A stretch of DNA of 15,809 nt from a virus (lineage: Duplodnaviria > Heunggongvirae > Uroviricota > Caudoviricetes), in the IMG/VR virus record IMGVR_UViG_2537561934_000016; one strand, written 5' to 3'. Every line of letters begins with the position of its first letter. Position 1 is the first letter of the stretch. Position numbers and translations under genes: made by a program. The notes under the pieces were generated by a model, which saw nothing but the letters and a program-made list of their open reading frames with translations, had not been told where the DNA came from and ran no database searches. Positions 1-15,433 of this stretch are shown one piece after another.

Positions 1-474
1 ATGTACAGTCCGGTACAAATAGCCAATAAATTCATAACGTTGGGAAACCAACATCATAATCCTCTGACCCACATGCAACTGCAGAAGCTTACTTATATTG
101 CCCATGGTTACTATTTAGCATTAACAGGTAAGCCTTTGCTCAATGAATGTGTCTCCGCGTGGAAGTACGGTCCAGTTATTCCTGGAATGTACGATGCTTT
201 CAAAGACTATGGGAATAAACCTGTTACGAATGTAGCAGTAGCTCCTTTTGGTGGCATCGTTACTATGGATCCGCAAGCAGAGAGCATTATCGGGGCTGTT
301 TATAAGTTTTACGGCTCGAAAAATGGAATTGAGTTATCAACTCTAACTCATATGCCAGGTACGCCTTGGTCACAAGCTTATAATGGTATTGGCTCGTCGA
401 TCATCTCAAATGATGCGATCAAGGCTTATTATCATGATTTATTGAATAACCGACAGCAATGTCAGGGCCTCTGA
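1..474 (+). CDS. Panacea-domain (DUF4065; SocA/GepA-like) protein, putative antitoxin, 157 aa
   Basis: ATG at base 1, so the true start could lie upstream of the window. Translation has the DUF4065-like core LQKLTYIAHGYYLAL ... SAWKYGPVIPGMYDAFKDYG, recognised from memory of the family. A 22-nt gap separates it from the next same-strand ORF. Confidence 0.65.
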   Translation: MYSPVQIANKFITLGNQHHNPLTHMQLQKLTYIAHGYYLALTGKPLLNECVSAWKYGPVIPGMYDAFKDYGNKPVTNVAVAPFGGIVTMDPQAESIIGAVYKFYGSKNGIELSTLTHMPGTPWSQAYNGIGSSIISNDAIKAYYHDLLNNRQQCQGL

Positions 475-496
475 AAAAGTAATATTCAGGGATGAC

Positions 497-1045
497 ATGT
501 CTCATAATTCAGATATCTATAAACTGATCGGAGCGGCCGCAGGTGTTGAAAATGGTCGCTCTGAAGCATCCTTAAACTCTACTGACAGTCAAGAGCAGGC
601 TTTTGAATCCGCATTTGAGCCGTCTAATCATGAACGCGATGATGATTCTTCTTCAGAAAATAAGGCTATTCTGGAGGAAGAAGAGTTTGGTTCTAATACT
701 GGTGCATTGCATGAGTTTATGCAGCAGAACAGAATGGACAGTCTTCAAGCTCAGCTTGATATGCTCAAATCACAAGTACGGGATAAGATAGCTGACGCAA
801 CTGGTAAAGAAATAGACAATGAGCTCCGGACAAAAATGGCATCATTCACGGTTTGGTTTATGTCGTGTTGGTGCTTATTCGTTGTCGCAATGTTTACATC
901 GTTTCTTATTGCACATGAAGGAAAGGCTCCAGTTGAAGCGATCGTTGCATTACTAGGTACAAGTACAATTAGTATTGTTGGTTTGGTTGGTTTCGTTGTT
1001 AGTGGATTGTTCAAATCAAGAAAAGATAGTGATAAAGAAAAATAA
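497..1045 (+). CDS. Hypothetical membrane protein, 182 aa; candidate toxin partner of the Panacea protein
   Basis: ATG start with AGGGA 5 nt upstream. Acidic, Ser-rich N-terminus (DDDSSSENKAILEEEEF), a central charged helical segment, and two C-terminal hydrophobic helices (FTVWFMSCWCLFVVAMFTSFLIA and IVALLGTSTISIVGLVGFVVSGLF). No family recognised. Confidence 0.6.
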   Translation: MSHNSDIYKLIGAAAGVENGRSEASLNSTDSQEQAFESAFEPSNHERDDDSSSENKAILEEEEFGSNTGALHEFMQQNRMDSLQAQLDMLKSQVRDKIADATGKEIDNELRTKMASFTVWFMSCWCLFVVAMFTSFLIAHEGKAPVEAIVALLGTSTISIVGLVGFVVSGLFKSRKDSDKEK

Positions 1046-1084
1046 CCCGTACATATACGGGTTATCCATAGTTTTAGTTTAGTT
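1031..1084. terminator. Bidirectional intrinsic terminator between convergent genes
   Basis: Perfect 8-bp stem AACCCGTA/TACGGGTT (1044-1051 and 1056-1063) with a 4-nt loop, T-rich on the plus side (GTTTTAGTTTAGTT) and T-rich on the minus side (reverse complement of GATAAAGAAAAAT). Confidence 0.5.
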
Positions 1085-1348
1085 ATATTTTTTTTCCGTT
1101 CTGACTTTTTCCCACTCAGCTCGCCCTTCTTCCCGTCTTTTGTCAATATATTCCGCAAGATCCTGAATGTTGATGCAGCGTTTTGCTTTTTGTGATGTAC
1201 CGATGCGATATGTAGGTACAGGCAACTTACAAGCGTTTGCTTTTGCTTCTGCTGTGGCTGGACTCATACCAAAGTATTTTTGACTAACTGCTGAGAGTTC
1301 AATGTTTGGGGTATTGAATTCAGCCATCAGTAAAAACAAGGTATTCAT
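1079..1348 (-). CDS. PrtN-family (pyocin-activator-like) small DNA-binding regulator, 89 aa
   Basis: Translation MNTLFLLMAEF ... IQDLAEYIDKRREEG matches the remembered PrtN-family pattern (MNTLFLLMA ... DLAAYID). ATG confirmed as cat at 1346-1348, with GGAG 8 nt upstream on the minus strand. Confidence 0.75.
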   Translation of the reverse strand: MNTLFLLMAEFNTPNIELSAVSQKYFGMSPATAEAKANACKLPVPTYRIGTSQKAKRCINIQDLAEYIDKRREEGRAEWEKVRTEKKYN

Positions 1349-1384
1349 ATCATTTCTCCATCATAACCGGCTGCACCCGGTGAG

Positions 1385-2200
1385 TTACTTATTCATTTCA
1401 ATAATATTATTTTCTATCATTGATTTATTTAAAACCAAAGAAGGAGCAAGATGGTTGTCTATTTTAAACAATGCATAACTTTTAAACTGTTGGTGATATC
1501 CGTAACTAATAAGGATGCTAGAAAAATCTCTTAATTCATCTTCTTTTAAAAAATTAAAATGAAATGGGTTGTCACCATTTATGAACAATGAAACATCTAT
1601 TATGCAGTATTTCTCTCTGTTGTCATTTGCATAGAAAAAAATATAAGACATTCTGTTTGTTAAGACAATGCCATTAAATTTTCTTATGTCTGTAGCTATT
1701 TTGTTTTCCATGTTTGGTGCCACATATTTATTTTCAGAAATACATTTAATTTCATCTCCAGATGTCGTGATTATATAAAAATGAAACTTATCATAAATAT
1801 CTAACTTAACTACGCCATCATTATTATAAAGGCTGCTAAATTTTGGTGGTTCAACTTTTAAAGAATCATAGTTCTTTAAAAGAAGAGGGGAGTCAAATTT
1901 AATAACTTGTAGTATCCCTTTACCTTCAACCTCCATATTGATTGAAGATATAGCAATTGCATTATCTCTTTTATTATTCAGGATTATGGTTGATATATGC
2001 ATGTCATATATTCTACTTGCATTTGCTGAATACGACACTGTCACCTTTTTTGATATTTTTTGCACGCCAAAATATATAGTGAAGGCAGCGGCAAGAATAG
2101 ATAAGAATTTAATGTCAAATAAGGACCATAGCCACATTAGTTGCTCAATTGCTTCAGAGTTAATCATTTGCTTTACCATTATCGCTGTAATACAACACAT
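1385..2200 (-). CDS. Hypothetical protein with N-terminal transmembrane anchor, about 271 aa, AT-rich; start uncertain
   Basis: The 6-frame ORF 1385..2221 opens on TTG. In-frame ATGs lie at 2200, 2179 and 2167 and none has a strong Shine-Dalgarno. A hydrophobic helix (LMWLWSLFDIKFLSILAAAFTIYFGV) follows. No family recognised. Sits between the YfdQ-like and PrtN genes on the same strand. Confidence 0.5.
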   Translation of the reverse strand: MCCITAIMVKQMINSEAIEQLMWLWSLFDIKFLSILAAAFTIYFGVQKISKKVTVSYSANASRIYDMHISTIILNNKRDNAIAISSINMEVEGKGILQVIKFDSPLLLKNYDSLKVEPPKFSSLYNNDGVVKLDIYDKFHFYIITTSGDEIKCISENKYVAPNMENKIATDIRKFNGIVLTNRMSYIFFYANDNREKYCIIDVSLFINGDNPFHFNFLKEDELRDFSSILISYGYHQQFKSYALFKIDNHLAPSLVLNKSMIENNIIEMNK

Positions 2201-2321
2201 GTGTATATATACGCAATGCAATTATTTTGCAAGTGCTTCATTTACTATCAATAGCTTCGTCACGTTATTGTTTAATGGTTCTTTATAGGGGCGGCAATAG
2301 TTAAAATTATCGCTTCCGTAA

Positions 2322-2345
2322 ACGCCCCCGCAGGGGCATTTGCAG
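2322..2345 (-). terminator. Weak candidate intrinsic terminator after the YfdQ-like gene
   Basis: On the minus strand, GCCCC-TGCG-GGGGC hairpin followed by GTTTAC. Short stem and poor U-tract, so low confidence. Confidence 0.25.
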
Positions 2346-2353
2346 TAATGAAA

Positions 2354-3178
2354 TCAGGCGGTGAAAGTACCAATAAAGGTTTCTACTTTGCTGTCTTTGA
2401 ATTTCTCAACAAGCAGATCACGAAATTCGTTAGCCATTTCTTCCTGTACCGCTTCCAGCTGAATAATGCGCAGAACCAGTACAGGACGATCGCCAGTGAT
2501 AATGCTGAGGCGTAATTTAAACGGACGTTCTTTCAGACCTTCAAACGGAACGCATTTAAATTCAAATGCCACTGGCATAATGTCTTTGGTCTTCGCTTCG
2601 ACAGACTCCATCAGGGAGCGTTTGCCGCTGAAGTCATTATCTTCAAAATCAGCGGTCTGGTTCGCTTCAATTGTGATTTTACGGATCGCCGCAGCCGCTT
2701 TGGTTGCCTGAATGGCGTCACCATTAGCATCAAAGCCCACAAGGTAGTCGGCCCAGTCTTCAATCCATTCTGCCAGTGACTTCTGGGAGTTACGCTCGCC
2801 GTTAACAGACAACAGAGCAGAGAACGGTGCTGTCTTTTTCAGTTTGAGAGTGGCGGTGTTATCTGCGTGACCTGGTTCATCAATAGTACCCAGGTTAAGC
2901 ACACTGACGGCACGCATATTATCGGCATCGATAAAGCAGCGGGTGCCTTCATCTGCAAGAACTTTAGAATAACGGGTAAAGTCATCGATGCTGGCAGTGG
3001 AAAGCGCACCACGGAAACGGAAGCGATTTAAATTAAATTTTTCCAGATCATGAATGCGGAAATTCTCAGGCAATGCCACAGCATCGGCACCAATCTTACT
3101 GATAATTTCATTAACACCCTGAGCAGAAATAAGGGCATGGATTTGATTAATTGCGGTTGCGTCTAAGTTCTGAGACAT
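2354..3178 (-). CDS. yfdQ: YfdQ-like prophage protein (DUF2303 family), 274 aa
   Basis: ATG (cat 3176-3178) with GAGGA 7 nt upstream. The 274-aa length and position directly downstream of a 120-aa gene match the yfdP-yfdQ pair of E. coli cryptic prophages as I remember it. The symbol rests on recalled length and synteny, not alignment. Confidence 0.7.
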
Positions 3179-4272: not shown

Positions 4273-4947
4273 TTAGGCCTTTATTTTGTATCTTCTTGGT
4301 TTTCCTGAGAAAATCACTGTACCAATTATAGAGCAATTACCGTTGATCTTAATGTAAGGTTCAGGCCAGTTTGGGTTTAATGCTTTGAGGTAACGCTGTG
4401 TTCCATCTTCTATCAACCGCTTGAAGGTGGTTTCGCCTGTATCGTGCATCAATGCAATAACGTCGTCACCGTGGCAGGCAGGGACTTCAGGATCAACAAA
4501 AATCATGTCTCCCGGGCGGTACTCATCAATCATTGAATCACCAATCACCCGCAAGATATAAGTCATTTCGCCACAGGGTACAGGGCAGGGATAAGTTTCT
4601 GCTGTGCTCAAATCAACCTCAGAATAGCCAACTTCTTTCCATGCTCCGGCCTGTACCCATGATATGACAGGGACTAACGTTATTTGTTTGTTAGTGATTG
4701 AAACGTCAGGTTTTTTTGTGATGTTCGTTGTCTGGTGTTCTTGATCAAGCCATCCGACAGGCAGGTCGAAACATTTTTCGATGTGCCGTGCCATGCTGTC
4801 ACCGATATTTTTAGTTGCACCATCTCCCATAAACCTGCTGGTCTGGGTTGGCTCGCGATCAATCATGGTGGCAAAGGAAGAATTCCCGCCAACACCATCT
4901 CTCAGTTTTCTGGCGTTAGACCGCCGGATGTCATGGACTGTTTTCAT
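4273..4947 (-). CDS. cI: Phage CI-type repressor, N-terminal DNA-binding domain plus C-terminal S24 (LexA-like) autopeptidase domain, 224 aa
   Basis: C-terminal domain carries the S24 catalytic motifs: Ser in ILRVIGDSMIDEY and Lys in TTFKRL. The N-terminal region ends in the DLPVGWLD pattern typical of phage repressor DNA-binding domains. Divergent from a cro-like gene. Confidence 0.85.
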   Translation of the reverse strand: MKTVHDIRRSNARKLRDGVGGNSSFATMIDREPTQTSRFMGDGATKNIGDSMARHIEKCFDLPVGWLDQEHQTTNITKKPDVSITNKQITLVPVISWVQAGAWKEVGYSEVDLSTAETYPCPVPCGEMTYILRVIGDSMIDEYRPGDMIFVDPEVPACHGDDVIALMHDTGETTFKRLIEDGTQRYLKALNPNWPEPYIKINGNCSIIGTVIFSGKPRRYKIKA

Positions 4948-5247: not shown

Positions 5248-5933
5248 CGGATGTTTTTCATAAAAGCTGGCCGCTGGCCTCCGATCCTTCTCAACAAATG
5301 CGACTGATGGCAATGGCGGTGGACTCCGGCGGTGAAGACGGGGTCACTGATAATGCCTATAAATTCTGGCGTCGTTGCCGTCGTGATGGCCTTGGTAAAC
5401 GTATTTACCTGTTTAAGGGCGACAGCATCCGGCGCGCAAAACTGATCACCCGTACATTCCCTGATAACACCGGACGAACGGGCCGACGGGCGCAGGCCGC
5501 AGGTGATGTACCGCTCTGGCTTCTTCAGACGGATGCCCTGAAAGACCGGGTGAATAACGCGTTATGGCGTGACTCGCCAGGTCCCGGCTATGTGCATTTC
5601 CCTGACTGGCTGGGGAGCTGGTTTTACGACGAACTGACGTATGAAGAGCGGAGCAGTGACGGGAAATGGAGTAAGCCGGGTCGCGGTGCCAACGAAGCTT
5701 TTGACCTGATGGTGTATGCCGAGGCTCTGGTCATTCTGCATGGATACGAAAAGATCCGCTGGCCGGATGCACCGGAGTGGGCGAGCCGGGAAACCTGGCT
5801 GGAGTGTGTCCCGGACAGTACCGAACCGTCACCCACACCGGAACCGGTATCCACGCCTGTTAAAAAACAAAAACGGAAGAAAACAGTAACTGACGATGTT
5901 AACCCCTGGCTGACTTCCGGAGGATGGTTATGA
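5208..5933 (+). pseudogene. 3' fragment of lambda-type terminase large subunit (gpA-like C-terminal region), no start codon
   Basis: Reading frame opens straight after a TGA at 5205-5207 with no plausible start. Its stop overlaps the next start in an ATGA arrangement, as at the lambda A-W junction. Followed by gpW-like and portal genes. The ATPase N-terminal part and the small subunit are absent. Confidence 0.65.
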
Positions 5934-6142
5934 ATCAGAATGATATTGAAGCCATGATTCAGCGTTATACGGAAGCTGAAATGGCGGTGCTGGACGGAAA
6001 ATCCGTCACTTTTAATGGTCAGCAGATGACCATGGAAAACTTATCTGAGATCCGGCAGGGGCGGCAGGAGTGGGAGCGCCGCCTTGCGGCTCTGATTACA
6101 CGACGACGGGGGCATCCCGGGTACCGGCTGGCGAGGTTCTGA
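5930..6142 (+). CDS. gpW-like head-tail joining protein, 70 aa
   Basis: ATG at 5930 with GGAGG 7 nt upstream. C-terminus RRRGHPGYRLARF resembles the lambda gpW C-terminus (RRRGPAGFYV, recalled). Lies between terminase and portal as in lambda. Confidence 0.65.
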   Translation: MNQNDIEAMIQRYTEAEMAVLDGKSVTFNGQQMTMENLSEIRQGRQEWERRLAALITRRRGHPGYRLARF

Positions 6143-7494
6143 TGGCAATTCTTGATGATGTGATTGGCGTTTTTTCACCAGGATGGAAAGCGGCAAGGCT
6201 GCGTTCCCGAGCGGTGATCCAGGCTTATGAGGCCGTAAAAACGACGCGGACACACAAAGCCCGACGGGAGAACCGAACTGCCGACCAGTTAAGCCAGTAC
6301 GGGGCCGTGTCGTTACGTGAGCAGGCCCGTTACCTTGATAACAACCACGATCTGGTCATTGGTGTATTTGACAAGCTGGAAGAACGGGTGGTGGGGAAAA
6401 ACGGGATTATTGTCGAGCCACATCCGGTATTACGCAATGGGGCCATTGCCCGTGACCTGGCAGCGGAGATACGCACCCGATGGAGTGAATGGTCTGTCAG
6501 TCCGGAAGTCACCGGGCAGTTTACCCGCCCGATGCTGGAACGTCTGATGCTGCGTACCTGGCTGCGCGATGGTGAGGTGTTTGCCCAGATGGTTTCCGGG
6601 CGCATAAACAGCCTGACGCCTTCTGCCGGTGTTCATTTCTGGCTGGAGGCGCTCGAGCCGGACTTTATTCCCATGACCAGTGATGAGAGCAACAGGCTGA
6701 ATCAGGGCGTGTTTGTTGATGACTGGGGGCGTCCCGAAAAATATCTGGTGTATAAAAGCCGTCCTGTATCCGGACGGCAGATGGAAACCAAAGAAGTGGA
6801 TGCAGAGCGAATGCTGCATCTTAAATTTGTTCGCCGTCTGCACCAGATGCGCGGGACGTCTTTATTGTCCGGTGTACTGATCCGCCTCAGTGCCCTGAAA
6901 GAGTATGAAGATTCTGAGCTGACTGCAGCAAGGATCGCCGCTGCTCTGGGGATGTACATCCGGAAAGGCGACGGACAGAGCTATGAACCGGATGGTAATG
7001 GCAGCAAGGAGAATGAACGCGAGCTTACCATTCAGCCAGGCATTATTTACGACGATCTGAAACCCGGCGAAGAAATCGGAATGGTGAAGTCGGATCGCCC
7101 CAATCCTAATCTTGAAACTTTTCGTAATGGTCAGTTGCGTGCAGTGGCGGCTGGTAGTCGTCTGAGTTTTTCCAGTACAGCGCGCAACTATAACGGCACT
7201 TACAGCGCCCAGCGTCAGGAGCTGGTTGAGTCTACTGATGGCTACCTGATCCTGCAGGACTGGTTTATTGGTGCCGTCACCCGCCCGATGTATCGTGCAT
7301 GGCTGAAACAGGCTGTGGCATCCGGTGTTATCAGGTTACCCCGCGATCTTGACCGTTCTTCACTGTATACCGCGGTGTATTCCGGACCAGTGATGCCGTG
7401 GATTGACCCTGTTAAGGAGGCTGAGGCCTGGAAAATCCAGATTCGTGGTGGAGCGGCGACAGAATCAGACTGGGTATCCGGCAGGAAACACTGA
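6142..7494 (+). CDS. Phage portal protein (lambda gpB position), 450 aa, possibly C-terminally truncated
   Basis: ATG at 6142 overlaps the gpW stop (TGATG). Called by synteny (terminase, W, portal) and size; the sequence is not obviously close to lambda gpB from memory. The track start at 6070 is an upstream extension and rejected. Confidence 0.6.
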   Translation: MAILDDVIGVFSPGWKAARLRSRAVIQAYEAVKTTRTHKARRENRTADQLSQYGAVSLREQARYLDNNHDLVIGVFDKLEERVVGKNGIIVEPHPVLRNGAIARDLAAEIRTRWSEWSVSPEVTGQFTRPMLERLMLRTWLRDGEVFAQMVSGRINSLTPSAGVHFWLEALEPDFIPMTSDESNRLNQGVFVDDWGRPEKYLVYKSRPVSGRQMETKEVDAERMLHLKFVRRLHQMRGTSLLSGVLIRLSALKEYEDSELTAARIAAALGMYIRKGDGQSYEPDGNGSKENERELTIQPGIIYDDLKPGEEIGMVKSDRPNPNLETFRNGQLRAVAAGSRLSFSSTARNYNGTYSAQRQELVESTDGYLILQDWFIGAVTRPMYRAWLKQAVASGVIRLPRDLDRSSLYTAVYSGPVMPWIDPVKEAEAWKIQIRGGAATESDWVSGRKH

Positions 7495-7498
7495 ATGA

Positions 7499-10342
7499 AT
7501 GCACCCGTGCGGAGCAGTCGGCCAGCGTGGTGCTCTGGGAACCCATGCGACTGATGCTGCAGGCTCAGCACGTGCAGCCAGCACATCAGCCGGGCAGGCC
7601 GCGACGTCGGCTCAGTCAGCGTCTTCCAGCGCAGGAACGGCATCAACAAAGGCTACTGAAGCATCAAAAAGTGCTGCCGCTGCAGAGTCCTCAAAAAGCG
7701 CGGCGGCTACCAGTGCCGGTGCGGCGAAAACGTCAGAAACGAATGCTGCAGCGTCACAAAAATCTGCAGCCACTTCTGCATCCACCGCGACCACGAAAGC
7801 GTCAGAAGCTGCCACCTCAGCCCGGGATGCGGCGGCCTCAAAAGAGGCAGCGAAATCATCAGAAACGAGCGCAGCCTCGAGCGCCAGTAGTGCAGCCTCT
7901 TCGGCAACGGCGGCAGGAAATTCCGCGAAGGCCGCAAAAACGTCTGAGACGAATGCGGATAACAGCGCACAGGCGGCAGCGGCCTCACAAACTGCATCGG
8001 CAAACTCCGCGACAGCAGCCAAAAAATCAGAAACCAACGCGAAAAATAGCGAGGCAGCAGCAAAGAGCAGCGAAACTAATGCTAAATCCAGTGAAACAAA
8101 CGCGGCGAAATCTGCAGCGGACGCACTTAATTATCGCAACCAGGCACAATCCGTTGTTGGTAACAATATTGGTCTTGGTGAAGTTGCTATGACCTGCACT
8201 GATATCTCTGTTGAGCCATCAGGTTATATTGGATTTATCAGGATTTACATCTCAGCGAAAGGTTATCCATCAGTAGCGTCTAGTGCCGGGGATAATCTTA
8301 TTTCTGGTTATATAGTTAGATCAGAAGTGTCAACAAAAAGATATTCCGGTCTATTTGTTGGTTCAGATACAAAATCATTGTATTCGTACATTTACAGCCA
8401 AAGTTCTGGCCCGCAATGGATACGTCATACCCGCAGAGATGAATTAAGCCGCTTTGGTCAAAATGAATCAACAACTCGTATGTATGGTCCAACTGGTGAT
8501 CGTTTCTTTGAAATCCATACTAACGGGAGTTGGGGGGTTTATGATTCTTCTTCTGGACAATGGTCTCCGTTAGGTTTAGCCCAGGGTGGTACTGGTGGAA
8601 GAACTATCGAGCAAGCACGTGCGAACTTGCGGGTAATGTATGAGCAAAAAGCTGGCCTTGCTAATACTGACCTAAACACCCTTACCGGTGAATATTCTGG
8701 TTTCTATCAACAACCAACGAGCGCTTACGCAACAGAAGAATTAAATTACCCAATCGGTCTGGCGGGCGCTTTAATAGTGCTCCAAACGAGAGCCAACACT
8801 GCTTCTTCCTGCGTTCAGGTGTACCACCCTTATAATAATCCGGGAATTACTTATAGACGAATATATGAAGGAGGTAGCGGTACCTGGTCTGAATGGAAGA
8901 GAGATGTATCAACAGAAAGGGTTGAAGAGGGAAAAGAAACAACTTACGTATATTCTACGTATTCTTCAGGCGCACCACGCTTACAGGTTTCCAAATCTGG
9001 TTTGTGGGGTTGTCATAATGGCACTGGCTGGTTGCCATTAGCTGTTGGGCAAGGAGGTACAGGTGCGACAACAGTAGAAGATGCGCGAAACAACTTAAGT
9101 CTTGGCGAAAGTAGCGCAGTTAAATTTAAAAACCTTACTTTAACCGAAGCGCTCGACACGACATTAGGACTGCTTACAAAAACAGGACGAGACTGGAACG
9201 CTCAGCATACTGATAACGTCGACAAATTTAGACCAATTGCAGGCAGTACAAACGGCCCGGCAGGCTCTATGGTTCTTGGCGGCATTCATGTTCAATTTAG
9301 TAAAAATTATGCTGTGCAGTTCGGAGGCCGCAATTCCGGTTTTTGGGGAAGAACAATTGAAAATGGAACGACGCAGGAATGGAAGAAATTACTAACAGTA
9401 GACGATCTCAATTCATCTACCGCTCTTGCTGTCAGGTCATTAACCACATCTAACCCGATAAAATCTGGCGGAGGGCGGATTGATGTCCTTGGAAGCACGT
9501 CAGACTATAGCAAAATGGATTGCTTTGTACGTGGGTTTGATAGCACCGGTAATTCTCTCGCGTGGGCGTTGGGTTCATCAGTCGGCGTAAGTAAGATGCT
9601 GTCGCTAAAAAATTTCTTTAGCGGAGCTGAGATACTGCTAAATGGTAATGACGGCGCGGTTCAACTCAAAACAGGTGCTGTTAACGGTGCTAAAGCGCAG
9701 GCGCTCACTATCAACAAGGATGAGGTTAACTCAACTGTTGATTTAACTCTTACAAAACAAACAGGGACTGGCAATCGTTTTGTTTTACAGAACTTAGGTA
9801 ATACAGAACTACCATTTGCTGTCAAGGTGTGGGGTTCAGGTGATCGACAAAACGTTTTTGAGGTTGGAACGTCTGCCGCGTATCTGTTTTATGCTCAAAA
9901 AACATCGTCAGGTCAGCTGTTTGATGTAAACGGTGCTATTAACTGTACAACACTGAATCAGTTATCAGACCGCGAGCTGAAAGACAATATTCAGATTATC
10001 AGTGACGCAACCGAAGCTATCCGTAAAATGAACGGGTACACCTACACACTTAAGGAAAACGGACTGCCTTACGCTGGTGTTATTGCACAGGAAGCAATGG
10101 AGGCAATACCGGAAGCGGTAGGCTCATTCACTCATTACGGTAAAGAGTTGCAGGGACCAACGGTTGACGGCAATGAATTACGTGAAGAAACACGTTATCT
10201 GAATGTTGACTACGCCGCCGTGACGGGCTTACTTGTTCAGGTCGCCCGTGAAACAGATGATCGCGTTACCGCGCTGGAAGAAGAAAACGCAGAATTAAAA
10301 CAAAGATTATCTGCAATTGAGGCGGCGCTTGCCTCTAAATAA
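7499..10342 (+). CDS. stf: Side tail fibre (Stf-like) protein, N-terminally truncated, with C-terminal S74 intramolecular-chaperone domain, 947 aa
   Basis: Residues from about 15 onward (ATDAAGSARAASTSAGQAATSAQ ... AAATSAGAAKTSETNAAASQKSAATSAS) match an internal region of lambda Stf as I recall it. The C-terminal part begins with the S74 autoproteolysis signature SDRELKDNIQ (Ser codon at 9965-9967) and ends in a coiled coil. The frame opens 1 nt after a TGA. Confidence 0.8.
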   Translation: MHPCGAVGQRGALGTHATDAAGSARAASTSAGQAATSAQSASSSAGTASTKATEASKSAAAAESSKSAAATSAGAAKTSETNAAASQKSAATSASTATTKASEAATSARDAAASKEAAKSSETSAASSASSAASSATAAGNSAKAAKTSETNADNSAQAAAASQTASANSATAAKKSETNAKNSEAAAKSSETNAKSSETNAAKSAADALNYRNQAQSVVGNNIGLGEVAMTCTDISVEPSGYIGFIRIYISAKGYPSVASSAGDNLISGYIVRSEVSTKRYSGLFVGSDTKSLYSYIYSQSSGPQWIRHTRRDELSRFGQNESTTRMYGPTGDRFFEIHTNGSWGVYDSSSGQWSPLGLAQGGTGGRTIEQARANLRVMYEQKAGLANTDLNTLTGEYSGFYQQPTSAYATEELNYPIGLAGALIVLQTRANTASSCVQVYHPYNNPGITYRRIYEGGSGTWSEWKRDVSTERVEEGKETTYVYSTYSSGAPRLQVSKSGLWGCHNGTGWLPLAVGQGGTGATTVEDARNNLSLGESSAVKFKNLTLTEALDTTLGLLTKTGRDWNAQHTDNVDKFRPIAGSTNGPAGSMVLGGIHVQFSKNYAVQFGGRNSGFWGRTIENGTTQEWKKLLTVDDLNSSTALAVRSLTTSNPIKSGGGRIDVLGSTSDYSKMDCFVRGFDSTGNSLAWALGSSVGVSKMLSLKNFFSGAEILLNGNDGAVQLKTGAVNGAKAQALTINKDEVNSTVDLTLTKQTGTGNRFVLQNLGNTELPFAVKVWGSGDRQNVFEVGTSAAYLFYAQKTSSGQLFDVNGAINCTTLNQLSDRELKDNIQIISDATEAIRKMNGYTYTLKENGLPYAGVIAQEAMEAIPEAVGSFTHYGKELQGPTVDGNELREETRYLNVDYAAVTGLLVQVARETDDRVTALEEENAELKQRLSAIEAALASK
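7540..8110 (+). repeat. Ala/Ser/Thr-rich degenerate tandem repeats inside the tail-fibre gene
   Basis: Repeated units of the form AAKTSETNA / AAKSSETNAKSSETNAAKSA. The GC-rich low-complexity DNA gives spurious long ORFs in other frames. Confidence 0.5.
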
Positions 10343-10348
10343 TATTAA

Positions 10349-10370
10349 GGGGCTGTGCGCCCCGTTTTAT
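10349..10370 (+). terminator. Intrinsic terminator after the tail-fibre gene
   Basis: GGGGC-TGTGC-GCCCC hairpin followed by GTTTTATT, 7 nt after the stop codon. Confidence 0.6.
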
Positions 10371-10384
10371 TGGGTAGGATGAAA

Positions 10385-10672
10385 ATGGGTATAACACCTT
10401 TCCTTCATGCACTTTGTGCTGTGGCTGCGCAGATACTGGTGGGGCTTTTTACCGGAAACTGGGTTTACGGAGCGATAGCCAGTTGTACGTTCTTCATTGC
10501 GGGCGAACACACCCAAGCATAATATCGCTGGATTGAAATGTTCGGGCATGGCAAGCGGATTAACATGCCGTGGTGGGGCGGTTTTGATCCACGCGCATGG
10601 GATGTGGCAAGCCTGATGGATTTTGCTGTGCCGATGGTAGCGTGTCTTCTGATCTGGCTGTTGATCCGTTGA
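10385..10672 (+). pseudogene. Small hydrophobic protein gene interrupted by one in-frame TAA (45 aa, stop, 49 aa)
   Basis: ATG at 10385 with AGGA 5 nt upstream. Translation MGITPFLHALCAVAAQILVGLFTGNWVYGAIASCTFFIAGEHTQA, then TAA at 10520-10522, then in the same frame YRWIEMFGHGKRINMPWWGGFDPRAWDVASLMDFAVPMVACLLIWLLIR. Below the ORF-track size cutoff. Family not recognised. Confidence 0.3.
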
Positions 10673-10680
10673 ACATAAAA

Positions 10681-10729
10681 AGCCGCAGCAACTTGCCATG
10701 GCAGGATACTGCGGCTGGTTTGTGAGTTT
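10681..10729. terminator. Candidate bidirectional terminator between the small membrane ORF and the RT gene
   Basis: 8-bp stem AGCCGCAG (10681-10688) / CTGCGGCT (10709-10716) enclosing a perfect 10-bp palindrome TGCCATGGCA. T-rich on both flanks (GGTTTGTGAGTTT on plus; TTTTATGT on minus). Confidence 0.35.
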
Positions 10730-10850
10730 AAATAGTGTGTTTATTGCGATATATTTTAATGACTTAATGGATTACATATCTATGATATTCCTGAAATATC
10801 CTCTTCAAGCTCTTTTACTGATTTCGCAATTTTAAATTTAAACTTCCTCT

Positions 10851-12149
10851 CTATTTCACTATTGCTAAGTTTTTTTCCTTCTCTTTACCTATCCACATAG
10901 AAACAAGTTCTCGTTTCTGAGATATATGTAGATTGTCAAAGTTAGGTATGTATTTAAAAGTCTCCGCTCTACCTCTGCGGAGTTCATAGAAAGTTTTAAT
11001 CAAAGATTTTGGTTTTATTTCTGATGAAAGGCCGAATCGGCGGATAAGATTATTGATAGTATGATTAACAGAGCGAAGTTGAGCTGTTGAGGTTATTTGT
11101 GAGAAGTACGATACCCATCCCAATCGTTTACCTTCAAACACACATCCCGTAATTCTGAGATTTAGTTTCCACTGACAATATGCAACAGCTCGTTCTTTAT
11201 CACGCTTACTTTTAGCTTGTAGTAGAGCGTGCCTATATGCAGTAAAAATTTTTGCTAAGGATGACTCAAATCTAAGAATGCTCTCATGTTTTATCAATAA
11301 TTCTCGATTTTCTATGTGGTATCCCAAAAAGTTAAAACTTTCATCCAAACTGCCTACTTTGGATTTTGAGTTCTCTTCATTTAATGGATGTGGGTTTAAA
11401 TTTAATGATTGAAGCTTATCAATGATATGAGAAGCTATTTTTGTTGCTTGATATTTTGGTGTTAAAATAAGAATGTCATCAACGTATCGCATGTACCATA
11501 TGTCATGCATTTTATTGATTTCATCATCGAAATTAGATAGTGATATTTCAGCTAAAATGTTTGATATCGCTAATCCCTGAGGTACTCCTCTGGTATTATT
11601 AGGGATACCTTTGCTTCCTGTGGTTCCACTTACAGTAGGCACGATTAATGATGATGTTATTAACTGTCTAATTTCTTTTTTTCTAATTTTATTTTTTATT
11701 GCATTAATTATCAATTTATGTTCAATTGAAGGATAGAAACTTTTAAGATCTATTTTTGCATATTCAGCATATAGACTGTTGTTTAATGCTTCTTTCAATG
11801 AGTCAATTACTGTATGTGGTAGTTTTAATCTGGACTTAGGATATATTTCCGTAAGGCATTCACAGAGAGCTCTAAGAGTAATTCTGTCCCTAGCAGTTGG
11901 TATGGAAATCTGTCTGGGTGTAGAGTTAGCGCCTTTAGATATTAATTTTTCTTTATATGCTGTAAATTTGTAATTGCCAGAATTAACCTTTTCAAAAATG
12001 AAAGTGATCTCATTTTTTATTGTCAAATCAAGTTTTGATGGGCGAATCCGATCTATGCCAATCGCTCCTGATTCTTTGATTTTTTCAGAGTATACTTTTA
12101 GAAGATTTTTTTTCGAGAATGACTTTTTAAAAATTCTGCTTGCAGTCAT
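10851..12149 (-). CDS. Reverse transcriptase (defence-associated Abi/UG/retron-like RT), about 432 aa
   Basis: RT motifs are readable in the translation: IPTARDRITLRAL, GVPQGLAISNILAEISLSNFDDEI, catalytic YMRYVDDILIL (YVDD) and FNFLGYHI, followed by a roughly 130-aa C-terminal extension. The track start at 12155 is TTG; the first ATG is at 12149. The start overlaps the 3' end of the upstream membrane-protein gene by 23 nt. Strongly AT-rich. Confidence 0.85.
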   Translation of the reverse strand: MTASRIFKKSFSKKNLLKVYSEKIKESGAIGIDRIRPSKLDLTIKNEITFIFEKVNSGNYKFTAYKEKLISKGANSTPRQISIPTARDRITLRALCECLTEIYPKSRLKLPHTVIDSLKEALNNSLYAEYAKIDLKSFYPSIEHKLIINAIKNKIRKKEIRQLITSSLIVPTVSGTTGSKGIPNNTRGVPQGLAISNILAEISLSNFDDEINKMHDIWYMRYVDDILILTPKYQATKIASHIIDKLQSLNLNPHPLNEENSKSKVGSLDESFNFLGYHIENRELLIKHESILRFESSLAKIFTAYRHALLQAKSKRDKERAVAYCQWKLNLRITGCVFEGKRLGWVSYFSQITSTAQLRSVNHTINNLIRRFGLSSEIKPKSLIKTFYELRRGRAETFKYIPNFDNLHISQKRELVSMWIGKEKEKNLAIVK

Positions 12150-12678
12150 AGTCAATCCAAAGATATATTAATGGGAGTATATAAAGTGCGGCAGTAATAA
12201 ATATTCGAAGTAATATCCATAAAATAACAATTATTTTTTCTTTTTGTGTGGGGATCCTCGTCTTAAGTCCAACTTGAGTTACCCTTGAAATTTTATCATC
12301 TATGTCACGGTGATTCTCAACCTCATTGAGCAAATTAAAATATTTTTCTTTCTGTTCAAGAGATAACTGTTGACTGGTGGTAATGTCAAAATAGAGTCGC
12401 TGTAGTGCAATATAATTCCTTCTCATGGCTATTGCTCGACCACGAAAATCTAGGTTAGATACGATCAGAGAAATACCCAGTAGAGCCACTGAAAGTATCG
12501 CCGCAACGACATCTGTATTATCTCCTAGAACCTTTGGAAATCGCAACGTTACAATTGAAAGTACCGCACTCAATATAGCATACCAAACGAGGATAAATTG
12601 AGAGTGTTTTTCAAGCCATTCTAGTCGATGGTGCGCTTGGATACGTGCTTTATATGTAAACCAAATATTGTCATGCAT
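12127..12678 (-). CDS. Multi-pass membrane protein (SLATT-like topology by inference), 183 aa, co-operonic with the RT
   Basis: ATG (cat 12676-12678) with AAGGA 6 nt upstream. Hydrophobic helices ILVWYAILSAVLSIVTLRF, VVAAILSVALLGISLIVSN and IIVILWILLRIFITAALYILPLIYLWI. The 3' end overlaps the RT start. Confidence 0.7.
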   Translation of the reverse strand: MHDNIWFTYKARIQAHHRLEWLEKHSQFILVWYAILSAVLSIVTLRFPKVLGDNTDVVAAILSVALLGISLIVSNLDFRGRAIAMRRNYIALQRLYFDITTSQQLSLEQKEKYFNLLNEVENHRDIDDKISRVTQVGLKTRIPTQKEKIIVILWILLRIFITAALYILPLIYLWIDYDCKQNF

Positions 12679-12689
12679 AAAAGATCCTT

Positions 12690-12832
12690 TTTAAAAGCGG
12701 AAGGGGCAGGATATATTGGAACCGTTGAACATCCTGCCCGGCAGGATCAGTGAGCATAAGCTCAACAGTAAAATATTACTGTTCATTATCAGAGCCGCCC
12801 TTGCATGCGCAAGAGGAAAAACCTGCCCCATC
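12690..12832 (-). ncRNA. Structured 5' leader or candidate non-coding RNA upstream of the membrane-protein/RT operon
   Basis: Three copies of an 8-9 bp element in inverted orientation: GGGGCAGGAT (12703-12712), the palindrome ATCCTGCCCGGCAGGAT (12731-12747) and CCTGCCCC (12822-12829). Further local hairpins at CAGTAA-AATA-TTACTG (12765-12780) and around TTGCATGCGCAA (12801-12812). No ORF. Confidence 0.25.
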
Positions 12833-12840
12833 CCTTTGAA

Positions 12841-12869
12841 TTATTACAATTTAATGATCTTAAAGTCAA
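12841..12869 (-). promoter_or_regulatory. Candidate sigma70 promoter for the leader/membrane-protein/RT operon
   Basis: Minus strand reads TTGACT (-35; plus 12864-12869), a 17-nt spacer, then TAATAA (-10; plus 12841-12846) preceded by TG. Sequence match only. Confidence 0.3.
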
Positions 12870-12900
12870 TACAAGTGAATGGTGTCCAGAGATGATGAAC

Positions 12901-13149
12901 TTAATGAACAAACCACTCGTCAGCAGACTCCCAGGTATCTTTCAGAGTCTCCTGAACAAAAGTTTTAGCTGAATCTTTATCAGCGGTGCGCGTAACAGAA
13001 AGGCCATCGTTGCTGGTGGCTTTTACGATCACTTCTACATCGTCATAACGTTTACTGATGCGTCGGGTTAATTCTTCCTTTAACGCATCCACAGCACCGG
13101 TTGGCATTTTAGTCATTTTTTCTTTGGCTATGCAGATTTCAATACGCAT
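12901..13149 (-). CDS. DinI-family (DNA-damage-inducible protein I-like) protein, 82 aa
   Basis: Translation [31 protein letters not shown] ... [11 protein letters not shown] matches the remembered DinI pattern (MRIEVTIAK ... ETWESADDWFV). AGGGGA 6 nt upstream of the ATG. Two LexA boxes lie directly upstream. Confidence 0.8.
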
Positions 13150-13161
13150 AAAAGTCCCCTA

Positions 13162-13181
13162 CACTGTATTTGTATACAGTA
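13162..13181. promoter_or_regulatory. LexA (SOS) box 1
   Basis: CACTGTATTTGTATACAGTA fits the CTGT-N8-ACAG consensus (TACTGTATATATATACAGTA) with an AT-rich core, 13-32 nt upstream of the dinI-like start. Confidence 0.6.
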
Positions 13182-13189
13182 TTATTTTT

Positions 13190-13209
13190 AACTGTATGGA
13201 TAAACAGTG
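13190..13209. promoter_or_regulatory. LexA (SOS) box 2
   Basis: AACTGTATGGATAAACAGTG fits CTGT-N8-ACAG. It lies 28 bp from box 1 and abuts the integrase stop codon. Confidence 0.5.
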
Positions 13210-14307
13210 TCAAGAGGTCTTATTTCTGCTCCTTTGGAGTTCTTCAAAACGATTATGTAAAGATTTCGGATACAGTTCGGTATATACCTGCCATAGCACG
13301 TTTAATGAACGATGCCCTGTAACCTGAGCGACTTCCTCAATACTAAAACCAGCCTCAAATAAGCGACTTGCCCCTTCTCTACGCAAATCATGGTATCTCA
13401 GATCTTTAATACCTAATTTGCTTCTTACCCTCTGAAATCCTGCGGTAACAGAAGTGCTGTTATATGGAAAAATGAATTCTGATTTTTTGGGTTGTCGCTG
13501 GACGATATCCCAGGCTTCCCCAAGCAAGGCAACTTTCATATGGTTGCCTTCCTTTTTACGTGGATCTTTCCTGTCTCTTACTAGTATAGATTTTTGTTCC
13601 TGGTCGAGATCTTCCCATCGTAACCGGCATACTTCTCCGATTCGCATACAGGACCACACAGAAAATTTGAGGATATCAACGAACGGAATTTTTGAGCATT
13701 TATGAGTAGATCGTTGTTGAAGGCCTTCAATGAGCATGTTCAGTTCATCAGATGCTGGTCTACGATTACGACGGTTTGATTTACCAATCAAACCGAGTTT
13801 AAGTAGATATGGACGAGCGCTTTTCGCCGGGTTTGATGTGTAATTGATTCCGTATACAGGTTTTGCCGCATCCAGAACACTGCCAAGATAACTAACATCG
13901 TGGCTGACTGTTGCTGGGCCTGCACCAGCGTTGTTTCTTAGCCTGCAATGTTCAATTACGTCATTTTCTGTCAGTTCAGATAGTTTGATCGCGGAGATGT
14001 CACTATCCATAAGCAGTTCCAGCACATATCTTTTAGTACGGCCTGCTTTACCTCCGGCATTTGGGTCATTTAAATATTTGTGTAGTAAGTCACGGACTGT
14101 AAGTCCGTCAACAGCATTTGATGATGGAATGCCATATAGATCTAATTCCATCACTTTCTGTGCGCCCCATGTTTTGGCATGAGCATGTTTAGGGAATGTT
14201 TTGCTTTCCCTGTAAGTGATAACACCTTTTTCTTTGATAATCACATTACAGCGATAGCGTGGTGTGCCATCGGATTTTAGTCGTTTCTCTATGTTATAGT
14301 ACGCCAT
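13210..14307 (-). CDS. int: Tyrosine recombinase / phage integrase (dusA-associated type by context), 365 aa
   Basis: Integrase-sized protein whose C-terminal region HDLRREGASRLFEAGFSIEEVAQVTGHRSLNVLWQVYTELY carries the His/Arg/Tyr pattern of tyrosine recombinases. Encoded divergently from dusA, 88 bp from its start. Confidence 0.9.
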   Translation of the reverse strand: MAYYNIEKRLKSDGTPRYRCNVIIKEKGVITYRESKTFPKHAHAKTWGAQKVMELDLYGIPSSNAVDGLTVRDLLHKYLNDPNAGGKAGRTKRYVLELLMDSDISAIKLSELTENDVIEHCRLRNNAGAGPATVSHDVSYLGSVLDAAKPVYGINYTSNPAKSARPYLLKLGLIGKSNRRNRRPASDELNMLIEGLQQRSTHKCSKIPFVDILKFSVWSCMRIGEVCRLRWEDLDQEQKSILVRDRKDPRKKEGNHMKVALLGEAWDIVQRQPKKSEFIFPYNSTSVTAGFQRVRSKLGIKDLRYHDLRREGASRLFEAGFSIEEVAQVTGHRSLNVLWQVYTELYPKSLHNRFEELQRSRNKTS

Positions 14308-14395: not shown

Positions 14396-15433
14396 ATGCA
14401 CGATAATCCTGAAACACAGAAAACTAATCAAACCAGCGTGATGCCTGAAAAAACTGGCGCTTACTGGAGTTCTCGGTTTAGCATTGCTCCTATGCTCGAC
14501 TGGACGGACAGACATTGCCGCTATTTCTTGCGTCTGCTTTCCCGCAATACGTTGCTGTATACCGAAATGGTGACCACAGGGGCGATTATTCACGGTAAAG
14601 GTGATTACCTGGCGTACAGTGAAGAAGAACATCCGGTAGCGTTGCAACTCGGCGGTAGCGATCCGGCGGCGCTGGCACAGTGTGCGAAGCTGGCAGAAGC
14701 GCGTGGATATGATGAGATCAACCTGAATGTCGGCTGCCCGTCTGACCGGGTGCAGAACGGCATGTTTGGTGCGTGTCTGATGGGTAATGCGCAGCTGGTT
14801 GCCGACTGCGTGAAAGCGATGCGCGATGTGGTGTCGATTCCAGTGACGGTGAAAACGCGTATTGGCATCGATGACCAGGACAGCTATGAATTTCTCTGCG
14901 ATTTCATCAACACCGTTTCCGGCAAAGGCGAGTGTGAGATGTTTATCATCCACGCACGTAAAGCCTGGCTTTCGGGGTTAAGCCCGAAAGAAAACCGTGA
15001 AATCCCGCCGCTCGATTATCCGCGTGTGTATCAACTGAAGCGTGACTTTCCGCATCTGACAATGTCGATTAACGGTGGTATCAAGTCGCTGGAAGAGGCC
15101 AAAGCACACCTGCAACATATGGATGGCGTGATGGTCGGGCGCGAGGCGTATCAGAATCCGGGTATTCTGGCGGCGGTAGACCGGGAGATCTTTGGTTCCT
15201 CGGATACCGATGCCGATCCAGTGGCGGTAGTGCGCGCCATGTATCCGTACATTGAGCGTGAACTCAGCCAGGGGACGTATCTCGGCCATATTACCCGGCA
15301 TATGTTGGGCTTGTTCCAGGGTATTCCTGGCGCGCGGCAGTGGCGGCGTTATTTAAGTGAAAATGCCCATAAAGCGGGTGCAGACATTAATGTGCTGGAA
15401 CACGCGCTCAAACTGGTGGCGGATAAGCGTTAA
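14396..15433 (+). CDS. dusA: tRNA-dihydrouridine(20/20a) synthase DusA, 345 aa
   Basis: Translation carries the Dus family core ([19 protein letters not shown] ... [13 protein letters not shown] ... catalytic region) and ends ... LKLVADKR, as in E. coli DusA. An alternative in-frame start is at 14441 (MPEKTG). The 5' end may be element-supplied. Confidence 0.9.

Follow-up and report, generated by a model that had tools for sequence, protein, structure and literature searches.

A Putative Tandem LexA Operator Upstream of a Prophage dinI Homologue

The 15,809-nucleotide stretch of DNA analysed here as a whole (IMG/VR record IMGVR_UViG_2537561934_000016; hereafter referred to as the window) is a part of the Escherichia coli chromosome with a degraded lambdoid prophage that adjoins the dusA gene. 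We concentrated on the prophage end, where two palindromes resembling LexA boxes precede a gene of the DinI family. In the minus-strand direction this end is composed of the integrase gene, the tandem-box site, the DinI-family gene, a gap of 222 nt, and the genes of a SLATT protein and a reverse transcriptase (RT) (Table 1). An earlier account of the window, made from its letters and open reading frames (ORFs) and called here the sequence-only reading, had described the downstream part as a leader and an RT operon. This part is DRT10 (UG17), which comprises a non-coding RNA (ncRNA), the SLATT protein, and the RT.

Table 1. Positions of genes and predicted elements in the window (position 1 is its first letter).
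Feature	Position	Strand	Remarks
SocA/Panacea-domain antitoxin-like gene	1-474
Small acidic membrane protein	497-1045
278-aa ORF	1385-2221		without Pfam or PADLOC match
DUF2303 gene	2354-3178
CI-type repressor with S24 autocleavage domain	4273-4947	minus	Pfam Peptidase_S24, 1.5e-26
C-terminal terminase fragment	5298-5933
Portal gene	6070-7494		runs directly into the tail-fibre gene
Tail-fibre gene	7499-10342		long Ala/Ser/Thr-rich repeat region, ~7530-8100
Hairpin and U-run after RT	10674-10718	minus	-21.3 kcal/mol, then UUUUU
DRT10 (UG17) reverse transcriptase	10780-12149	minus	PADLOC RT_UG17, 7.9e-151
SLATT_5 two-transmembrane effector	12127-12678	minus	Pfam SLATT_5, 1.3e-28; PADLOC RTasSLATT, 1.5e-56
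DRT10 ncRNA	12693-12834	minus	boundaries approximate; basal stem closing four stem-loops
Template loop CAACGGUUC-CAAU	12727-12715	minus	inside the DRT10 ncRNA
DRT10 own promoter (predicted)	12840-12869	minus	TTGACT, 18-nt spacer, TGt-AATAAT (extended -10)
dinI-like gene	12901-13149	minus	82 aa; Shine-Dalgarno GGGGA, 13159-13155
Box 1 (putative proximal LexA box), 20-mer	13162-13181	minus	core CTGTATACAAATACAG, 13179-13164; 22.2 bits
Sigma-70 promoter of the dinI-like gene (predicted)	13184-13213	minus	10/12 matches
Box 2 (putative distal LexA box), 20-mer	13190-13209	minus	core CTGTTTATCCATACAG, 13207-13192; 20.1 bits
Tyrosine integrase	13210-14307	minus	3' end inside the -35 of the dinI promoter
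dusA	14396-15433	plus	divergent from the integrase

The product of the dinI-like gene matched Pfam family PF06183 (E = 1e-19; 70.9 bits vs. the cut-off of 24.2), and its residues 1-81 could be aligned to residues 1-79 of E. coli DinI (PDB 1GHH; E = 3.7e-13). The C-terminal acidic helix of DinI (ETWESADDWF) is kept in this protein, with TWESADEWF in common. Its score against the DinI equivalog model of NCBIfam, NF007893, was 73 bits, which is below the cut-off of 111 bits and indicates that the protein is a prophage paralogue of DinI. In RefSeq, the product is labelled 'DinI-like family protein'. PADLOC, which gave no match for it, does not list it among defence components.

Upstream of this gene, CTGTATTTGTATACAG at positions 13164-13179 and CTGTATGGATAAACAG at positions 13192-13207 are the sole matches to CTGT-N8-ACAG in the window. 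The pattern CTGTNNNNNNNNACAG occurs exactly twice in the 15,809 bp, as compared with 0.16 occurrences expected from shuffled sequences, and two or more matches were reached in 3 of 200 shuffles. To score the boxes we used a LexA position weight matrix built from 27 known E. coli sites, which is approximate and is not the published matrix; the boxes scored 22.2 and 20.1 bits with it, compared with the median of 19.0 bits for the 27 training sites. The runner-up site in the window scored 9.9 bits and the top site over 200 shuffles scored 18.7 bits. No further LexA-like site above 9.9 bits was found in the window, including the CI-type repressor gene, the DRT10 module, and the region upstream of DRT10. 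The approximate heterology index was 4.3 for the box scoring 22.2 bits and 6.0 for the box scoring 20.1 bits. The mismatches of the two boxes to the 20-mer consensus TACTGTATATATATACAGTA number 3 and 5, and the arms are free of them.

Both boxes overlap the best sigma-70 promoter that was predicted upstream of the DinI-family gene. The -35 hexamer of this promoter, TTGACA (13213-13208), is perfect and overlaps the stop codon of the integrase gene, while its -10 hexamer is either AAAAAT (13189-13184), which gives a spacer of 18 nt, or TAAAAA (13190-13185). The record of phage mEp460 (JQ182728) has a promoter annotation at this site as well, with a spacer of 17 nt. Box 2 occupies the spacer between the -35 and -10 hexamers. 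Box 1 begins 4 nt past the -10 hexamer and spans the predicted +1; the Shine-Dalgarno sequence and the ATG codon come next. Such a layout is that expected of a classic SOS operator, in which LexA bound to either box would exclude RNA polymerase. The two good boxes that the sequence-only reading had placed 13-60 nt upstream of the dinI start are indeed there, with their 20-mers 12-13 and 40-41 nt from the ATG at 13149, and its claim of tandem LexA operators on the dinI-like promoter is supported by their score, their position in the promoter, and their conservation, by all of which they look genuine.

Conservation of the Promoter, the Boxes, and dinI as a Cassette

Of 5,426 complete E. coli genomes, about 1,900 have the promoter, the boxes, and dinI together at a coverage of at least 80%, and so do 79 phage records. 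We examined 12 copies of this cassette, located at different prophage ends, down to one copy with an identity of 74%. The sequences that flank them are unrelated, and comprise the integrase gene present in the window, prfC, yecD, tRNA-Pro, ssrA, or an insertion sequence (IS) element. Homology among the copies starts at the -35 hexamer. The CTG-N10-CAG motif is kept in both boxes in all 12 copies, and the distance between the centres of the boxes is 28 bp in 11 of them and 29 bp in the 74%-identical copy. As judged from these alignments, the promoter, the predicted operators, and dinI are one small, mobile, and conserved cassette that many E. coli lambdoid prophages carry at their end. We also considered whether the boxes could be arm sites of the integrase, and rejected this possibility, as the same boxes are present in cassettes that have no integrase gene next to them.

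The slot that separates the tail-fibre genes from dinI (10343-12900) is a cargo hotspot, which holds DRT10 in the window. Elsewhere it contains cdtABC (phage cdtI), espK/espN (an O-antigen Shiga toxin-producing E. coli strain), or a gene encoding a DUF262 protein (another strain), and it is empty in mEp460.

The DRT10 Module Downstream of dinI

DRT10 is a tripartite defence system whose parts are an ncRNA of roughly 140 nt, the SLATT protein, and an RT which makes protein-primed tandem-repeat cDNA, and the ncRNA of the published systems is independently expressed (PMC12632851; bioRxiv 10.64898/2026.04.29.721553). In the window, the SLATT and RT genes overlap by 23 nt (12127-12149), and the RT shares 98% identity with a family member of 456 aa that ends in Ser456. 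Upstream of SLATT, in agreement with the published descriptions, we predict a structured ncRNA of about 140 nt whose template loop has the A-B-A' form. It folds much better than its shuffled versions (z = -3.8) and aligns with the regions that precede SLATT in Klebsiella, Enterobacter, Xenorhabdus, Photorhabdus, and Buttiauxella. Moreover, its consensus structure over nine loci contains nine pairs with compensatory changes. A scan of the whole window with Rfam revealed no family, and hence this ncRNA is outside Rfam.

The template of the window, CAACGGUUC-CAAU, predicts a cDNA repeat GAACCGTTG. The template of a sister locus (L003), CAAUGAUUC-CAAU, is the reverse complement of the published Eco3DRT10 repeat, GAATCATTG. 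As L003 carries the exact Eco3 template, the Eco3DRT10 system that has been studied sits natively behind a dinI gene with LexA boxes.

The promoter predicted for DRT10 itself begins 31 nt past the dinI stop codon. Its features, namely TTGACT, a spacer of 17-18 nt, and TGn with an AT-rich -10 hexamer, are kept in the Klebsiella and Enterobacter loci, in which the upstream DNA is unrelated, and this conservation puts the left end of the mobile DRT10 module at about position 12875. Among complete E. coli genomes, 188 have this DRT10 at a prophage end. None of the sequenced phages in INPHARED (50,697 records; tblastn, E<=1e-20) encodes an RT of the DRT10 type, and the carriers of DRT10 may be mostly defective prophages.

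The RT gene of the window carries a 1-nt frameshift of its own. The A-run at 10870-10876 is A7 in the window and A8 in five related loci (L003 and L061-L064), and this is the sole difference from strain AR434 over 3,701 nt. As a result, the RT frame already ends at 10851 and the protein lacks its last 27 residues, with Ser456 among them. Ser456 is invariant in our alignment of 19 RT sequences. In the published Eco3DRT10 work it was identified as the priming residue, and the S456A substitution was found to abolish defence. The C-terminal priming residue that is a mark of DRT10 is thus missing from the RT of the window, which can be explained either by a private inactivating mutation or by a sequencing error in the homopolymer.

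Relation of DRT10 to the SOS Response

The dinI and DRT10 genes are on the same strand. The 31 nt that separate the dinI stop codon from the next promoter have no stable hairpin (-5.1 kcal/mol), and no terminator was found between the dinI stop codon and the ncRNA promoter; the first terminator-like structure on this strand, at 10718-10674, is past the RT gene. In mEp460 and phage cdtI, a hairpin with a T-run could be seen by eye right after dinI, which our simple terminator scan did not call. It appears that the DRT10 module replaced the terminator that follows dinI in the phages free of this cargo. Among the E. coli genomes that carry this DRT10, it lies directly behind the boxed dinI in 182 of 188 (97%), and this linkage was seen at three or more chromosomal sites, at least at dusA, prfC, and yecD.

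In a class of DRT10 with 90-95% identity (73 genomes), dinI is a pseudogene in both of the loci that were examined, L061 and L062 (E. coli CP115324, AP045812; 3797-4016). There, dinI contains an additional G and an in-frame TAG, and its stop codon is lost to an 8-bp deletion. Despite this decay of dinI, both LexA boxes, the -35 hexamer, the ncRNA promoter, and DRT10 are all intact in these loci.

Outside E. coli the picture is different. Neither dinI nor a LexA box was found upstream in any of the 44 species-representative DRT10 loci or in any of the 9 Klebsiella and Enterobacter loci, and the strong LexA boxes of two loci (L009 and L021) are located 2.6 kb upstream or downstream of RT. An association with LexA or dinI as a general property of DRT10 was rejected, as the 53 loci of other taxa are without dinI and have no box in the region of about 1.1 kb upstream of RT. 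The papers on DRT10 (PMC12632851; bioRxiv 10.64898/2026.04.29.721553) do not mention LexA, SOS, or dinI, and our search of the literature revealed nothing specific that would tie SLATT or DRT10 to SOS.

We favour the reading, to which we assign a probability of about 0.85, that a tandem LexA operator covers the promoter of a prophage dinI paralogue, and that DRT10 is a separate cargo with its own promoter. The control of the dinI-like gene by LexA is very likely, and would be regulation of a known kind, because the sites are conserved and because the Gifsy prophages of Salmonella provide a precedent (see below); we infer LexA binding and SOS induction from the sequence. As long as the cells are undamaged, LexA dimers bound to box 2 and box 1 would shut out RNA polymerase. 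The self-cleavage of LexA stimulated by activated RecA (RecA*) would then open the dinI promoter, leading to the production of the 82-aa DinI-like protein, which would be expected to modulate RecA filaments as chromosomal DinI does. DRT10 would have been inserted as a cargo just past the dinI stop codon, bringing its own constitutive promoter. With no terminator between the two units, SOS transcripts would probably continue into DRT10, and such read-through would add to DRT10's own expression without being an inherent part of the defence system. An SOS read-through that is incidental to the place where the module landed is plausible, given this arrangement.

The suggestion of the sequence-only reading that the RT operon as well could be under SOS control is partly supported, considering the common strand, the 31-nt gap, the lack of a terminator, and the 97% linkage in E. 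coli. Against a designed control point speaks that DRT10 has its own conserved promoter and is found in other genera with neither dinI nor a box.

A few points weigh against the reading that we favour. The -10 hexamer of the dinI promoter is weak (4/6), so that the transcription start is a prediction. The LexA matrix and the heterology index are approximate and do not derive from the published matrix. In addition, Rho-dependent termination in the 222-nt untranslated gap is not predictable, and the basal stem of the ncRNA, which is followed by GCUUUU, could halt a part of the transcripts. The literature searched contained no experiments on this E. coli dinI cassette, and nothing specific on tandem LexA boxes at E. 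coli prophage dinI genes.

We also considered whether the palindromes could be something other than LexA sites, either chance matches or operators of a phage-encoded regulator. Promoter regions rich in AT can hold palindromes, and two matches somewhere in the window did arise in 3 of 200 shuffles. However, the scores of both sites exceed the median of genuine sites, with no site in 200 shuffles reaching more than 18.7 bits, and the CTG and CAG arms are kept in 12 of 12 copies while the bases adjacent to them vary. Moreover, the promoter on which the sites lie belongs to a gene from a classic SOS family, and the occurrence of the cassette in prophages that differ in their immunity regions and integrases speaks against a phage-specific regulator. 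Taken together, these data make a non-LexA nature of the boxes extremely improbable. If the boxes do bind LexA, SOS transcription from the dinI promoter might still be imagined to hinder DRT10 by occluding the ncRNA promoter and by producing a 5'-extended ncRNA that folds poorly or binds RT poorly, as a result of which functional ncRNA would drop relative to SLATT and RT. The start of the ncRNA promoter 31 nt past the dinI stop codon, with no terminator before it, is compatible with such interference, as is the finding that the association of RT with the ncRNA needs an exact ncRNA structure that includes the basal stem (bioRxiv 10.64898/2026.04.29.721553). On the other hand, this proposal is purely inferential, the processing of 5' precursors is common, and the sequence cannot tell interference from additive read-through. 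We regard it as very unlikely.

A different question is whether the dinI promoter could have been selected as a second, SOS-inducible promoter of DRT10, from which DNA damage, or RecA activated by infection, would raise the levels of SLATT, RT, and the ncRNA precursor by read-through. The position of both units on the same strand, 31 nt apart and with no terminator before 10718-10674, speaks for this. The linkage is kept in 182 of 188 genomes, at no fewer than three sites, and the boxes and the -35 hexamer persist even where dinI is a pseudogene with multiple lesions (both loci examined). Nevertheless, DRT10's own promoter is intact in all E. coli copies of DRT10, and none of the 44 and 9 other loci has dinI or a LexA box upstream. 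By eye, the promoter-operator stretch is about as diverged between lineages as the dinI coding region, and thus shows no sign of extra constraint. The linkage could be explained by one ancestral insertion that spread via recombination among prophage ends, and in the DRT10 papers defence was obtained with cloned loci and SOS was not invoked. The use of the slot between the tail-fibre gene and dinI as a general cargo site is a further argument against a designed coupling. We thus find selection of the dinI promoter for the needs of DRT10 rather doubtful. It also seems unlikely to us that Eco3-type DRT10 in E. coli is wired to SOS in such a way that RecA activation opens one promoter for dinI and for the read-through ncRNA-SLATT-RT transcript, leaving only an SOS-inducible leader where dinI has decayed. 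The trigger that activates RecA would in this case be DNA damage, infection, or, conceivably, the kilobase-long single-stranded cDNA of DRT10 itself.

The coupling of DRT10 to SOS would be a regulatory detail and not a new principle. The context that our analysis adds to the DRT10 papers is that Eco3-type DRT10 of E. coli is nearly always found directly behind a predicted SOS promoter, with no terminator in between. If read-through does take place, a telomerase-like defence RT and a membrane effector would rise with DNA damage, e.g., that caused by fluoroquinolones in clinical strains of the sequence types ST410 and ST131. Additionally, constructs cloned with "native upstream flanks" could then behave differently according to whether the LexA operators are part of them.

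Remaining Genes of the Prophage Remnant

Besides the genes described above, the prophage carries a tail-fibre gene, a portal gene, a terminase fragment, and a CI-type repressor gene. It is a remnant, as the head and tail genes between portal and tail fibre are all absent (5298-10342). The CI-like repressor aligns to the C-terminal domain of lambda CI (2e-9), and VQAG, GDSM, and FKRL could be recognized by eye in it at the positions of the lambda cleavage site and of the Ser/Lys pair. Considering the S24 domain and this alignment, the remark of the sequence-only reading that the repressor makes a second SOS-responsive point in the region is reasonable, though the prophage is a remnant. The genes at positions 1-3178 may likewise have accessory or defence roles in the prophage.

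Comparison with Known Systems

The closest precedent for the regulation proposed here comes from Salmonella, in which the dinI homologues carried by prophages Gifsy-1, -2, and -3 are the first genes of LexA-controlled operons (Lemire et al. 2011, PMC3121763; Mérida-Floriano et al. 2021, PMC8072944). The Gifsy DinI protein builds up after treatment with mitomycin C, and the region with the LexA box is required for this induction (PMC3121763). A single SOS box is present 19 bp from the ATG codon of the Gifsy dinI, the transcripts of which increase 4.6- to 23-fold upon exposure to nalidixic acid (PMC8072944). The Gifsy dinI-antirepressor-irsA operons and the locus studied here have in common a dinI homologue under proven or predicted LexA control, and the Gifsy operon is SOS-induced together with its co-transcribed downstream genes. 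They differ in that the Gifsy operons have one box, are located inside the prophage after a terminator, and continue with a small antirepressor gene and irsA, whereas in the window there are two boxes at the prophage end, followed downstream by a defence module with its own promoter. Neither an antirepressor ORF nor an irsA homologue is present directly downstream of dinI in the window, where the next ORFs are those of SLATT and RT. The repression of prophage dinI homologues by LexA is established biology, to which the operator itself adds little.

The DinI-like protein is 46% identical over its full length to the product of chromosomal E. coli dinI, the acidic helix is kept, and both genes have a LexA box near the start codon. 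Chromosomal dinI has a single LexA box. SOS promoters with more than one LexA operator include that of lexA with two boxes, that of recN with three, and those of colicin genes with two overlapping boxes. In general, the presence of several LexA boxes on one promoter leads to tight repression and late induction. The dinI promoter of the window resembles these promoters in the presence of more than one putative LexA box, with a spacing of 28 bp from centre to centre.

The cassette of dinI and its promoter is also present in mEp460 (JQ182728), phage cdtI, and Stx-converting phages, in which the corresponding DNA is 97% identical and contains both boxes. In mEp460, the same integrase gene is present upstream, and the record marks the promoter at the corresponding position but no LexA boxes. 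In contrast to the window, dinI of mEp460 and cdtI is followed by a hairpin with a T-run and then by a tail-fibre gene or cdtABC, with no DRT10. The downstream module itself corresponds to Eco3DRT10 (Tang et al. 2025, PMC12632851), with the ncRNA, SLATT, and RT in the published order and with overlapping SLATT and RT genes, and is distinguished from it by another template (CAACGGUUC) and by the frameshifted C-terminus of its RT.

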